Assembly (NCBI GenBank): GCA_051652765.1
Contig: JBOFUV010000017.1
Span: forward strand, 1-49,109
Direction: 5' to 3'
Source: Microcoleaceae cyanobacterium
GTDB lineage: Bacteria; Cyanobacteriota; Cyanobacteriia; Cyanobacteriales; Microcoleaceae
Length of the DNA: 49,109 bases
Of the stretch, positions 33,001 to 42,000 are shown one piece after another (positions within the stretch are counted from its first letter, which is position 1; each line of letters opens with the position of its first letter). Position numbers: made by a program.

Positions 33001-36000
33001 AATGATCCCCAAAAAGTTAACCTAAAAAAAAAGACAGCTCAGTGAAGTGCTTGAGCTGCTAGAGGCACATTACAAACTATTGCTCTAGTTCAGGGAACAA
33101 AGCAAAACTTTATTTTTTGCATTGGGTTGAAATGATTTGCAATCAATCCAGCTTGGTTGGGTTAGCTGAGCAGTGTGCTTTTTTCTCACTCTCAACCGTT
33201 CTATTTTCCCTAAAAACCTCTATTAAGCAAGTGATACTTATCAGTGAGGCCAGTGAGATTTATCGCAGAACCCCGTGAGAAAGATCTCAATCCATTGTGA
33301 TCTGGACTTGCATTCTAAGTGATATGTGATCATTTGAGGTGATTCATCAGAAATGTAACCGTTCGCATCCAGGCATCCTCTGCAGCCTCTCGGTTGTAAC
33401 GTGTGCCAGAAGGGTTGGCGAAACCGTGATCGGCATTGGGATAAACTTTGACCTCAACGGACTTGCCCAATCCGTTCAACGCCGCTTCAAACTGACGTAC
33501 GGTCGCAACGGCAGGATTTTGATCGAGTTCCCCAAAAATGCCCAGAATAGGCATATCTAAGGCTTTCAGCTTCTCTGGATTTGTTTCAATTCCCCCGCCG
33601 TAATAAATAACTGCAGCATCCAATTGACGCGGAAACAAAAGGGCTGTATTCAATGACCAAGTCCCGCCTAAACACCAGCCAATACTAGCAATTTTAGGAG
33701 CTTTTTCTTGCCGTTCTAAGTATTGATAAGCTTGCCTTAAATTGTCTTTTAGACTCTCAGGATTTTTCTGAGCCGCCATCAATAACTCCTTGGCTTTTTC
33801 CGGCGTTTCTGCAACTTTTCCACCATACAAATCAACTGCCAAAGCAGCATATCCTTCTGCGGCTAACCGCTCAGTCATCATTCGGATATTGTCATTCAAA
33901 CCCCACCATTCATGGATTACGATTAAAGCGGGTAACGGTTGCTCCGTTTGGGTTGCCCGAGCCAAATACCCATTCATCAGGGTTCCATTTGAACTGCCAT
34001 AGGAAACCGCTTCGGCTTCAACCGGGCCTGGTTCATTCGTGACGATTTGATCTGATATTTTTGTCAGCATCGGGGAAATAACAGGGCGATCGCGCTGATG
34101 AGCCGTCCAAGTCTGATTCACGTCTTGGAGTGGCATTTCTTGAGAAACAACTCGGTTCGGGTACTGAGTTCCCCAAATCATTGCTCCGAATAAAACGGCT
34201 AACGCGAGTCCAATAAACTTCTGCATCAAATCAAGGCTCCTAACGAACAACAATGCACCTACAGTGGTTTTTAAATTAGTGAGATCAACGCGGGTTTGGT
34301 CTGAGATCAATGCGGGTACGAAGCACGATCAACTTGATCTGAGTGTGAGATCAGTGTAGGTTCGATGAGCAATCAATCTGAACTTAAGCGTAACCCACTC
34401 AGGATCTATTCAACTATTGAGCTAGAAATAGCTTCTTCTATCATAGTGTTTGAGTTGAATCACGTCGCGCACCTGATCCAGTAGCTTTTTGGGGCGTTGT
34501 TCCATTTGGGGTTTATACAGAAAATTGCAAGGTAATCCTCCGAATAAATCGATATTAGGCCGAACATTGCTGTGTTTCATCGTGAGGATATACGGAAAGT
34601 TTCAGGATAATCCTCAAATTTAGGATGTATACCCAGAAAGTTTCAGTATAATTACAGCATTAGGGTGGATTATATGGAAAGTTTCAGGGTAATCATCCCA
34701 AAAGCGTTGGTTATGCAGAAAATTTCAATATAATAACTAGTTATGCGGCTTCGGTTATCGGTAAGGACGGTTTTTGAAAATCATCGATTGAGACAATCGG
34801 TGACAGAGCAAGATTCCGATAAAATCCAGCAAGAATTGTCTACAAGTTTGAAAGCTAGCTGAACTAGAATTTAGAGAGTAATTTCAAAGTGCTGTAACTT
34901 AGGAGCGCAAAGTATGAGTTCAATGGCTGGTAAGGTTGCAATTGTGACAGGCGCAAGTTCGGGTATTGGTCGTGCCACCGCGATTGCATTTGGCAAAGCT
35001 GGAGCAAAAGTGGTGGTAGTGGCTCGCCGTGCAGACAAGGGAGAAGAAACCGTTCAACTTGTCAAAGAAGCAGGTGGCGAAGCGGTATTTGTTCAAGCAG
35101 ATGTCACGAAAGCGTCTGATATCGAAGAAATGGTCAAAAAGACAGTTGAAACCTATGGTCGCCTCGATTATGCATTTAACAACGCTGGTTCTGGAACCTC
35201 TGGCAAAATTGCTGACTTGTCGGAAACTGATTGGGATTTTGAGATTAATGCAAATCTCAAGTCGGTTTGGTTGTCAATGAAGTACGAAATTCCTGCAATG
35301 CAGCAATCAGGAGGTGGCGCGATCGTGAGTACCTCTTCTCAAGGCGCACTTCTTGGCGTTGCAAATTATGGAGCTTATGGGGCAGCAAAGGCTGGAGTGA
35401 TCGCTCTGTCTCGTGCAGCAGCGGCTGAGTATTCTGCTGACCGAATTCGGATCAACACCGTTAGTCCTGGCGCTGTAAAAACTGATTTATGGGCAGGAGC
35501 ACCCCCTGAAATGCTCGATCAAGTTGCTGCTGGAATTCCGTTACAACGTATTGGCGTACCAGAAGATATTGCTGAGGCGGTGGTTTGGCTTTGTTCAGAT
35601 GGGGCTGCGTTTGTCACTGGGCATAACCTAGTCGTTGATGGTGGATTTACAGCCGTTCAGAAGTAGCCAGCCGCATAACAACGGCGCTGCACCGGAACGC
35701 CTCGATTTGGTTGGCTGAGTGGCAAAGATTATCTGTGTCCGGTGAGCGCGAACGTTCTACCGCTTCGTTATAGGTGGTGGCAGTAATTTGAAACCGATCG
35801 GCGGTGTTGAGATTTGTGTTATTTGAAAGCGATCTGTGAGGCACTCGTTTGAAGACGATCCGTTGGCATCTAGCGTTAAGCCATTTGAAGGCGATCTGTG
35901 AGAGCAACGTTTTGAGGTTACGGTCTACGATTGCAAGACTAAATGTTGAATGAATCTAGGATGAATTACGAAGTGCGAGCTTTAACAGATCATGATGAAC

Positions 36001-39000: not shown

Positions 39001-42000
39001 TTTAAACGATACTCGTTATCCAGAGGAAGATTCTATTCGAGAAACAAGACGGTTTTGGATAAAAACTGGGTTACACCCACCAGCAGATGATCCGAGCCAA
39101 GTTTGAAGTTGTGTTGCTGCCAGCCAGCTAACACTGCGTTGGTGCGGACGGAACAGAGGTTATCGGTGAGAATTCGAGGTTGCCTGCCGCTGCACAACTT
39201 CACCGTTAGTCCGCTCCGTTTTAGTCTTCAGGAAAGCAACTAACAACTACTCATTTCAAATTGGTGTTGCTGAAAGGTAGATTAGCGCACAATCATGAAC
39301 ATAATTACCTACAGACTCCCGCAGCTTGGAGACGAGCATCAAATCAGTGGTTGCATGTGGGCTTCTGCGGTTCTATGGGAACTCACGGATGGCACACCAG
39401 AAAGCGTTGCCGAATGGAAAAAGATATGTAGCCCAGAAGAATTAAGAGACAGAATCTTAAGTGGTGAGAAAACGCTAGTTGCAACCTGGAATGAAATCGT
39501 TGTTGGATTTATTGCCTTTAAGAGAGGCAATCATTTGTCACTGCTGTTCGTCCGAAGAGAGTTTTCTGGGCAAGGAATCGGTCAAGAACTTTTCACCCAA
39601 TGCAGCTATGATTTGGATGAAGTTACTGTCAACGCAGCAGAAGCAGCAGTTGGTTTTTACCAGAAAGTAGGGTTTATCCAAAGCGGCGATCGCTTTTTCA
39701 AGCATGGAATATGGGGAACACCGATGAAATGGATCAACCTTTCACACGAAGTCATGGAGTAATCCGATGGAGAACCTGTCACTACTGTCCACACTCCACG
39801 AGTTAGAGTGCGAACTGCATCAGCCGCAGTGCCGAGCGGATCGAGAACGCTTGGCACAGTTGCTTGCTCCTGACTTCAAGGAGTTTGGTCGATCAGGCGC
39901 TTCCTACACGCGCGAGCACACGCTGATGTCATTGCCATCAGATCCAGATCCACCGCAAATCCATGCCCAAGATTTTGTGGTCAAACCACTCTCAGCCTCG
40001 ATTGCGTTGCTCACCTATCGATCAGCTTATGTGAACCCATCGGGAGGGTTGTTCCGGCACACCAACCGATCATCGATTTGGCGGCTTGAATCATCAGGCT
40101 GGCGCATGGTGTTTCATCAGGGTACGCCTACAGACCCGTTTGACCAATCTGCAATCTTCTAACACAGTGCGATCGCCCGTCCTGCGGCAAGTTGACGCTG
40201 TGCACATTGCAGCCGCCACCGTTCACGGCATGGACTACCTACTGACCTGGAATTGCAAGCACATCGCCAATGCTCAAATTCAGGGAAAGTTGGCGGAGAT
40301 CAGCCTTGATTTTGGATACGAGTTGCCAATTCTTTGTACACCCTATGAACTTCTTGGAGGTTGATGATGTTTCATGATGAGATTGTCGAAGAGATCCACA
40401 GAATTCGTGAAGAGTACTCTCGGTCATTCAACCATGACTTGAAAGCCATCTTTGCTGATTTGCAAAAGCAGCAAGCGGAAAGCGGAAGAGAAGTTGTGAG
40501 CTTATCGCGAAAGCCCGGTCTAACAACACGTTGGAGCGGACGGGCAGGAGACCTTGGTGGTGATGCAAAAGATACTAGCCGCCGCTGATTTGAGCCGTTA
40601 GCTGGCTTCGGTTATCGATTAGGAATCGCTTCAAGATTATTTGTTTGAGTCAAAATAGCGTGAACGAGTCTAATTTCCGTTAAACGCTCTGATGCATAGC
40701 TTGAAGATGCCATGACAAACCAACCTAGTCTTACAGAGTAAGCGATTTGGGCGCGTACTTTGGCATCGATCTCTGAAAATCCAAGCTGTAGAAACAAATT
40801 CTGAAGATAATCTAAGCGCTGTTCATCAACGCGCGCGATCGCCACTGCCGCCCTAGCATCATTAACCGACCAAACTCGGACAGCCTTTTCCAAGAGATTA
40901 TCGTCTTCAGCAGCAATCTCCAACAAACTCAATAATTTGGCGATAGGAGAACTGTTTAAGCCTTCAATTTGCTCAATAATGCTTTTGGTATTACGAGCCT
41001 CCCACTCACGCAATATTTCTTCTAATAAGTCGTCCCGGTTTTTAAAGTGCCAATAAAAACTGCCTCTGGTAACGTTTAATAATTTGGCTAAAGGATCGAC
41101 CCGAACTGCCTCAAGCCCTTTCTCTATGAGGGTTTGAATGCCAATTGCTAGCCAGTCTTGCCGACCAAGTTTTGATGCGATCTCTTTTTCCATACAGTGG
41201 TGTATTGACAGTTTTTAATGAGGTTGCTACTATTCTGCCATACAGTTGTGTACGGTAAAATAGTAGAGGAACAATATGACACCCCAAACTGAACGGAATA
41301 AATCGATCGCTCTATGCTTTGCCCAGGATGGCTGGGGCACAAACCCTACTTGGAAAGAGACCTGGGACGAGTTGATGAGTACGGATGTTGTTCATCATTT
41401 CAACAGTGCAGCAGCACCAATTGTTGGGTTGGAAGCAAACAAAACGTTCAATGAGAATCTGTTTCAAGGATTTCCAGACATTCATCACACAATAGAAGAG
41501 GTCGTTGCTGAGGGGGACAAAGTTGTGTATCGCACGACAATCCAAGGAACCCACACGGGCGAGTTTTTAGGAACTCCGCCAACAGGTCAAGCAGTTAAAG
41601 TTAACGATTTCACCTTGCTGCGGATTGCTGACGGAAAGATTGTGGAGTGGTGGTATGAATGCAATTTGTTGGAAGTGATGCGGCAGCTTGGGTTGGTTGC
41701 AGCCTAGATTCCGATAGTTGAGAGAGGGTTTGCCTCATCTGCGCTGGTCGTTTTGCTGAGTTAAGAAACAGTCAGCTTGCCCAAGTCAAGCTAACCAATC
41801 ATTGCACCCAACCTACCGCAATGTTATCGGATTAATACTGCATCCAACTTGAATTGGGAATTTCTCTTGTAGTTTGAATTTGATGGTGCCAATGATACAA
41901 GCATCTGAATACCCTCGATATTTTAGATCTTGCAAACAAGAATTGGCTTGATTCTTGGGAACAGATGCCAACAATCCTCCAGAGGTTTGAGGGTCAAATA

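Follow-up and report, generated by a model that had tools for sequence, protein, structure and literature searches.

Integrase-less attI platforms at the head of different cassette arrays in a Microcoleaceae cyanobacterium genome

The draft genome of a Microcoleaceae cyanobacterium (GCA_051652765.1) carries 22 attI cores and 18 intI 5' stubs, and no full-length intI was found in the assembly. Seventeen of the 22 attI stand at the head of a cassette array, and 17 are accompanied by an N-terminal intI stub. In 12 of the 18 stubs, intI breaks at the same point, nt 63, into a common tail, and these 12 differ in their flanks and have 12 different first cassettes. This suggests that an already-broken platform was copied to many sites and was loaded with different cassettes afterwards, most likely by IntI acting in trans. 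We give this reading a probability of about 0.6. The claim in the first-pass annotation that there are at least 15 integrase-less attI platforms agrees with these counts.

The attC sites were searched for with an unseeded grammar scan. The unfiltered scan was dropped, as it found 56 matches in the genome and 57 in its reverse; once two filters also required A after AAC and C before GTT, 24 and 3 matches remained, respectively. An HMM seeded with 23 of these 24 (threshold E<=0.01) found 82 attC sites in its first round and none in the reversed genome, and when it was trained on 8 contigs, 54 and 47 sites were recovered on other contigs. The second round gave 89 matches on 34 contigs (78 at E<1e-5, 0 reversed), in line with the earlier figure of about 80 sites. 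They form 38 clusters, of which 18 are single sites and 20 have two or more attC without intI nearby, the arrangement known as CALIN. As described before, multi-site clusters keep to one strand (19 of 20). The earlier count of 40 separate arrays was inflated by contig breaks and should be read as an upper bound, because 19 of the 38 clusters have a contig end within 2.5 kb. An attC site should combine R'' (..AAC) and R' (GTT..) boxes, L boxes that pair and an extrahelical base; both AAC and GTT are present in 64 of the 89 sites. In these 64 complete sites, the L boxes scored 5.95 of 7 with their own partner versus 4.45 when shuffled (maximum 4.98). The cassette-circle signature, in which the 7 nt after a crossover match the R'' of the next attC, scored 5.15 of 7 in 55 pairs and 3.51 after shuffling (maximum 4.07); for the 16 pairs that start from attI, the values were 5.62 and 3.73. 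Thus, both the pairing and the circle signature claimed earlier were reproduced. The co-oriented attC part gene-sized cassettes with matching ends, and ORFs of at least 80 aa in the arrays lie mostly on the same strand (77 same, 24 opposite). As an external check, the profile was run on 159 loci that surround IntI relatives; it matched 57 times, and 0 times in the reversed sequence. All 57 were opposite in strand to intI, and 52 were upstream of it. Folding energy was dropped as a marker, since it did not set apart single attC sites or the ORF-less cassette; single-strand folding of the five attC in the window gave z of -2.2 to +1.3, not distinctive for four of the five.

The stubs had been interpreted as attI platforms, and this assignment is supported. 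The core lies upstream of the divergent intI, and platform homology stops at G|TT: pairwise difference is 0.04-0.10 before GTT and 0.53-0.57 after it. GTT is changed in 2 of the 22 cores, and the core pattern has 0 matches in the reversed genome. The same repeats and core are placed identically upstream of intact cyanobacterial intI genes. With regard to a cassette promoter (Pc), a TATAAT-like hexamer lies directly ahead of the attI crossover, and a scan of the platform for sigma-70-like promoters gave one site versus 1.9 expected, which is the chance level. Rfam gave 0 matches on three loci with platform, arm and ORF-less cassette.

The window, i.e., the whole 49,109-nt stretch analysed (contig JBOFUV010000017.1, positions 1 to 49,109), holds one of these loci (Table 1). 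The stub, the attI at 34740 and the five plus-strand attC described in the first-pass annotation were all found. The five are not the whole array, because a sixth cassette follows; it ends with the left half of an attC, which enters the 3' end of a SelD-fusion gene, and its R'' matches the attC5 crossover. To the left, the platform reaches 34279 through the shared arm. A 10-nt motif occurs at 34520, 34595, 34636, 34677 and 34718, with a 41-bp period in the spacer and core start. The 7 nt at the attI match the R'' of attC1 in all seven positions, and the circle match is also 7 of 7 for cassettes 2 and 4. In cassette 5, a possible broken attC lies at 40157-40176, and the two short ORFs, which may be PIN-like, had no family match. 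Cassette 6 also holds the 3' half of a recurrent ORF-less cassette.

Table 1. Platform and cassettes in the window
Feature	Positions	Strand
Left arm of platform: 22-bp repeats in tandem, four complete units plus a partial one	34279..34376	-
Non-intI tail (about 69 nt) joined after intI nt 63; stop at 34419-34421	34377..34442	-
intI 5' stub, first 21 codons; ATG at 34505	34443..34505	-
intI-attI spacer; candidate accessory IntI sites or promoter	34506..34717	+
attI core, crossover G34740|T34741	34718..34746	+
Cassette 1: short-chain dehydrogenase (34914-35666, Pfam PF13561), attC1 (35673-35760)	34741..35760	+
Cassette 2: GNAT acetyltransferase (35943-36452), attC2 (36462-36548)	35755..36548	+
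Cassette 3: 216-aa protein without family (36652-37302), attC3 (37309-37397, R'' end AAT)	36543..37397	+
Cassette 4: Mrr-type type IV restriction enzyme (37549-38409), 80-aa ORF, HNH protein (38654-39106), attC4 (39126-39211)	37392..39211	+
Cassette 5: GNAT (39295-39762), DUF4440 (39767-40162), two short ORFs, attC5 (40518-40603)	39206..40603	+
Cassette 6: TetR (40612-41193, minus), SnoaL-like cyclase (41276-41707), half attC (41789 to about 41835)	40598..41835	+

Cassettes of the window are also present in other arrays, bounded by crossovers. A contig of public run X1 carries positions 34740-35756 with other neighbours, and the cuts fall precisely on the crossovers predicted for attI (G34740) and attC. 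It has one difference in 1017 nt, and therefore the first cassette and its copy in the other array share a recent source. Cassette 4 lies between two attC in the sister genome G002 (90%). TetR and SnoaL occur together on public contigs, where matching stops at 41721. No public sequencing run held the whole window or half its words or more, and there was no RNA run among the matches listed.

No complete integron integrase had been reported in this genome, and our searches confirmed this for the draft assembly: there was no TIGR02249 match over the cut-off, which the IntI of a sister species passes, and no full-length intI beside any array. The stub is 76% identical to this IntI over 25 aa, and the intI pieces that tblastn found in the assembly with this IntI as query all lie within residues 1-117. 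The state is less extreme in closed cyanobacterial genomes, which have stubs alone or an intact intI with a stub platform far from it. Each of the closed genomes G355 and G172 has one intact intI and, at a distance, a stub platform that has attC sites of its own (97.6% over 338 bp and 91% over 286 bp, respectively). G022 (2 contigs) and G029 (1 contig) have four stub loci each and no intI over the cut-off.

The 12 stubs with the shared breakpoint also share the left arm, beyond which their left flanks are unlike. Among the first cassettes of all 22 attI, only C50 and C67 have one in common. The 22-bp array follows the common tail at 17 places in the genome, four further arrays have no tail, and most arm copies have ragged ends in or near the 22-bp array. 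Neither in G002 nor among the matches listed was the tail seen as the intI 3' end or in the DNA that follows an intact intI. In trees with low support, tail variants cut across attI types, so that recombination between platform copies probably happened. Mosaic copies could have joined arms to arrays that were loaded earlier in cis. Among five type-A copies, attI differs by 3.7% versus 10-13% for stub and tail, a conservation gradient that comes from these five and is gone once C97 is included.

An IS5-type element lies at some arm ends. The arm copies of C45, C67 and C101 start exactly at one terminal repeat of this element, with three different outer flanks, and TA stands directly ahead of the repeat. 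The C50 array ends on the opposite terminal repeat, and the left element end there lacks its outer 59 nt. Of the 14 element copies, seven have an att site or a stub no more than 6 kb away, a zone that covers 9% of the genome (p 9e-5). The element carries the start of a PF13340 IS5-type transposase; no full transposase was found in the genome. No contig of the assembly has both element ends around an intact platform, and therefore no target duplication is readable. The terminal repeat had 0 matches in five relatives. No empty sites were found in G001 and G002 at five loci, whose flanks lie on different contigs in all five cases.

From these data, we propose the following history. The lineage would once have had a chromosomal integron with two attI variants, and one copy would have lost all of intI after codon 21 and been fused to the left arm. 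This integrase-less platform (arm, stub, repeats and attI) would then have been copied to many chromosomal sites, perhaps at least in part through an IS5-family transposase that worked on an element end the platform had captured. The copies may have been reshuffled by recombination among themselves, and an intact copy elsewhere would later have supplied the IntI that loaded each of them with a different set of cassettes. As the intact copy would now be lost or outside the assembly, the arrays are probably mostly frozen and decaying. The first-pass annotation had proposed an integrase that acts in trans or is now lost. Loading in trans gains support from the shared breakpoint and the 12 first cassettes; an integrase acting now does not.

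It is rather unlikely that whole integrons were duplicated first, took up cassettes with their own intI and then decayed, with the breakpoint spread by recombination. Pseudo-intI arising through intragenomic duplication has been published (PMC2426708), the platform copies are mosaic, and the remaining six stubs here, like those of G002, end at different points. G002 retains a full-length intI with one nonsense codon, and the G355 copy was broken after being copied, because the continuation of its stub (aa 23-129) is located 25 kb away. However, no intI piece past residue 117 is left in our assembly, and the 17 tails lie in different flanks with 16 still joined to platform sequence, indicating that arm and platform moved together.

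Less likely still, IntI could have cut and moved its own platform, by recombination between attC and a site in or beyond intI, so that stub, attI and cassettes were re-inserted as one large cassette. An attC crossover is joined exactly onto GTT inside intI in G002:C63 and onto TTG inside intI in G206. The closed genome G016 has four tandem intI units, each behind an attC and a common cassette leader, and excision outside the insertion point was demonstrated experimentally (10.1101/2022.09.11.507474). In contrast, a GWT crossover was clear in only 1 of 40 aligned stub junctions and in 0 of the 18 of our genome, which rules it out as a general cause of truncation there. Same-strand attC were found within 7 kb upstream of only 3 of the 22 attI, and 12 array ends examined had no common GTT junction. 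It is very improbable that assembly or binning split up a single large integron whose intact intI was left out of the assembly. The assembly does have 158 contigs, none under 1.6 kb, half of the clusters are near contig ends, and the C68 platform is cut about 20 nt ahead of the intI start. However, this sole cut platform end has a matching cut arm end in C101, contamination is 0.18%, the 22 attI have different chromosomal left flanks, with three of them on a single 220-kb contig, and stub-only states occur in closed genomes. Such breakage could shrink the array count or hide intI, yet it leaves the platforms unexplained.

CALINs, duplicated intI pseudogenes and integrons moved by MITEs are already known. 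CALINs are small attC arrays without functional intI nearby, as here, and loss of intI, rearrangement and service by a distant integrase were all proposed for them (Cury et al. 2016, PMC4889954). Here, in contrast, most of the attI (17 of 22) stand at the head of an array, and 17 have an N-terminal stub. That survey sought pseudogenes with the C-terminal IntI domain, finding them near 15 of 279 CALINs (PMC4889954), and therefore would have missed such stubs. More than one intI per genome, many inactive, is also seen in duplicated integrons (PMC2426708; Xanthomonas, 10.1101/2025.06.18.660453). In Xanthomonas, intI is at one locus and CALINs are at seven loci across species (10.1101/2025.06.18.660453), unlike the 22 attI and 12 identical breakpoints in one genome here. 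Class 1 integrons flanked by MITEs or IMUs are moved by non-autonomous ends, with the transposase supplied in trans, and one of the integrons moved in this way is defective (PMC3575428). Each of those is an individual clinical or plasmid element between two flanking copies, whereas the present platform is chromosomal, non-class-1 and in many copies, with one element end in three of them. Insertion at attG and SALINs account for lone attC and for excision outside the insertion point (10.1101/2022.09.11.507474), but attG spreads cassettes and not attI platforms. Delta-attI-type cassettes have extra attI-derived sites that serve as recombination sites (PMC12901181); they lie in one mobile array, whereas the platforms here are whole and at separate chromosomal sites. 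Our search of openly accessible papers, without their supplements, turned up no genome described as having many attI platforms, although supplementary CALIN tables may list such cyanobacteria.

In the usual model, there is one attI per integrase, and only the first cassettes are expressed. Scattered copies that hold different genes beside a broken intI suggest that a single enzyme once served many docking sites. With 22 attI whose first cassettes are independent, the genome would gain capture sites and expressed positions many times over, along with many homologous points at which the chromosome could rearrange. The platform alignment also defines a cyanobacterial attI at single-base precision, something that can seldom be achieved. 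A search upstream of CALINs for attI with an N-terminal stub, which C-terminal profiles miss, would be a direct test of CALIN origin. Tentatively, in cyanobacterial integrons IntI might be encoded in one gene while non-autonomous attI pads spread in the manner of MITEs and selection retains them, with every copy giving one more captured gene a first-position slot. If this two-tier system is true, many CALINs would be landing pads that are still live and whose N-terminal stub went unnoticed. IntI would also occasionally cut within its own gene, or transport the platform it belongs to as one large cassette.

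The window is contig C17 of the genome under study, G000, whose HIP1 sites and gene content mark it as cyanobacterial. The draft assembly of G000 (5.04 Mb, 158 contigs, N50 52 kb, 3231 HIP1 sites; completeness 99.97%, contamination 0.18%) was scanned with a seed-free attC grammar, which was no better than in the reversed genome (56 versus 57 matches). Two added filters gave 24 matches versus 3, and these, minus one atypical match, were the HMM seeds. The HMM, which was robust to training on half the seed contigs, found 82 attC sites in round 1 (none in the reversed genome) and 89 in round 2, 78 of them with E<1e-5, on 34 contigs. 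Pairing between an L box and its own partner averages 5.95 of 7 versus 4.45 (64 sites), and the 7 nt past the crossover match the next R'' at 5.15 versus 3.51 (55 pairs). The first-pass annotation had raised the worry that a profile built from the genome's own sites is circular. This is answered by 159 outside loci around IntI relatives: the profile has 57 matches there, all of them oriented opposite to intI, with 52 lying upstream of the gene. Its figure of 40 separate arrays (38 clusters here) is an upper bound, because 19 of the 38 clusters have a contig end no more than 2.5 kb away and 18 consist of one site.

In G000 no match exceeded the TIGR02249 cut-off. The sister species G002 has a full-length intI carrying one nonsense codon, and tblastn with its IntI revealed 18 stubs in G000 and no intI piece beyond residue 117, confirming that this assembly encodes no complete integron integrase. 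In our judgement, an intact copy outside the assembly is unlikely. Pattern search found 20 attI cores (none in the reversed genome), and 2 were added by hand. A stub is present at 17 of these 22; 17 have same-strand attC within 7 kb downstream, and of the other five, three are at most 2.1 kb from a contig end. GTT is altered in two cores. The proposal that stub platforms are attI sites is borne out by intact cyanobacterial integrons, whose intI genes have these repeats and this core upstream, and by contigs from public sequencing runs cut at 34740. A 1063-nt contig of run X1 matches 34740-35756 with one difference and has other sequence on both flanks, and contigs of run X6 start at 34740 and 37390; these limits agree with predicted crossovers within a base or two. 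No public run holds the whole window. Contig starts cut through just one platform, that of C68, and one arm, that of C101; the two could belong together.

Features of the window and of related loci
Feature	Location	Description
Platform	window, from 34279	22-bp array, tail, stub, 41-bp repeats, attI
Cassette 1	window	SDR
Cassette 2	window	GNAT
Cassette 3	window	unknown protein
Cassette 4	window	Mrr + HNH protein
Cassette 5	window	GNAT + DUF4440
Cassette 6	window, after attC5	TetR + SnoaL; terminates in half attC overlapping SelD-fusion gene end
Dienelactone hydrolase	window 33330-34310	listed TTG start inside 22-bp array; ATG at 34229 likely start, 50 nt from platform's left end
Oxidoreductase-SelD fusion	window 41813-41840	last codons and stop come from broken attC
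ORF-less cassette	window 41717-41835; G000 C10, C21, C22, C30, C34, C50, C67, C74, C82, C116, C136	137-139 nt
Lone diverged tail copy	G000 C74:26936-27002	76%; one 22-bp unit
Shared first cassette behind attI	G000 C64:22897-24037; G002:C177:241-1378	89%
attC crossover joined exactly to intI-internal site	L249:2614-2899 (G002:C63); L339:8612-8700 (G206, another genome)	
Tandem intI units	L246-L247 (G016:C1:4478900-4498300)	four intI units + stubs inside cassette array

The window array was described with five attC; a sixth cassette beyond attC5 had been overlooked. Its two genes occur together on public contigs, and cassette 4 is also found in G002 (90% identity), flanked by two attC. The ORF-less cassette is repeated in about ten arrays, directly at attI twice, and its halves are also joined to other DNA at the central TA; Rfam gave no matches and its folding is unremarkable. 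The C64 and G002 platforms that share a first cassette are of different types.

Twelve stubs exit intI at nt 63 into the same 69-nt tail, followed by 22-bp repeats. Platform sequence is attached in 16 of the 17 tail copies, and the flanks beyond the arm are dissimilar. The twelve stubs have twelve different first cassettes. The simplest order of events would be truncation, copying and then loading, and this order would require IntI from elsewhere. Alternatively, whole integrons may have been duplicated first and have decayed afterwards. Tail variants cut across both attI types, which indicates recombination between copies, and this keeps the alternative alive. Loading in trans after platform amplification is the best reading (probability about 0.6). 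Copies of the 22-bp tandem repeat that have neither tail nor stub are found in G000 (C63, C109, C134, C145) and G002 (locus L256 on G002:C107); the repeat thus belongs to a family dispersed in the genus. The lone C74 tail copy, which is 12.5 kb away from the longest remnant of intI, is a possible source of the tail.

Copying by a transposase would fit several observations. The longest arms (C45, C67, C101) begin at one terminal repeat with differing outside flanks, and the C50 array terminates on the opposite one. Complete elements of 270-290 bp, opening with an IS5-type transposase start, are present in C68 and C134, and 7 of the 14 copies of the element lie near att sites, an enrichment against 9% of the genome. 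However, most arms have ragged ends, no contig in G000 has both element ends intact, searches yielded no full transposase for the element, and five loci checked in G002 and a second relative, G001, showed no empty site. The IS5-type element also remains as one-ended pieces no longer than about 100 bp in G000 C32, C52, C86, C130 and C148, and this one-ended survival resembles that of the intI stubs.

Of 401 genomes of the phylum, 79 had matches to a profile of the IntI N-terminus, with at least 14 matches in G000 and 6 in the next highest genome, although other genomes may be undercounted. The closed genomes G355 and G172 each combine a single intact intI with a stub platform far away from it. 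The platform carries attC sites of its own, and its homology stops at the crossover or a little beyond. In G355 the remainder of the stub copy lies 25 kb away and G172 has an additional copy retaining its 3' end, so that remnants are not always 5'-only. G022 and G029 (two contigs and one) have four stub loci each and no intI above the cut-off. In closed G016, tandem intI units are nested within a cassette array, behind attC sites; each is preceded by attC and a common leader, and the repeats are 1.0-2.4 kb (96-99%). The two exact attC-intI joins in G002 and G206 suggest that IntI sometimes cut its own gene; an exact attC crossover was found at none of the 18 stub junctions in G000.

attC clusters without intI (CALINs), service in trans, duplicated pseudo-intI and MITE-moved integrons are already described in PMC4889954, PMC2426708 and PMC3575428. 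We also drew on PMC3108266, PMC8618304, PMC10127599 and PMC12901181, and on the preprints 10.1101/2022.02.06.479319, 10.1101/2022.02.28.482270, 10.1101/2022.09.11.507474 and 10.1101/2025.06.18.660453. We found no report of many attI platforms within one genome in the literature, supplements excluded. According to this literature, integrase inactivation correlates with lost LexA control, and LexA of cyanobacteria recognises a different motif; this difference may be the reason for intI loss. The parts of the integron system in G000 and their boundaries are shown, and the system is a real, extreme form of something known.
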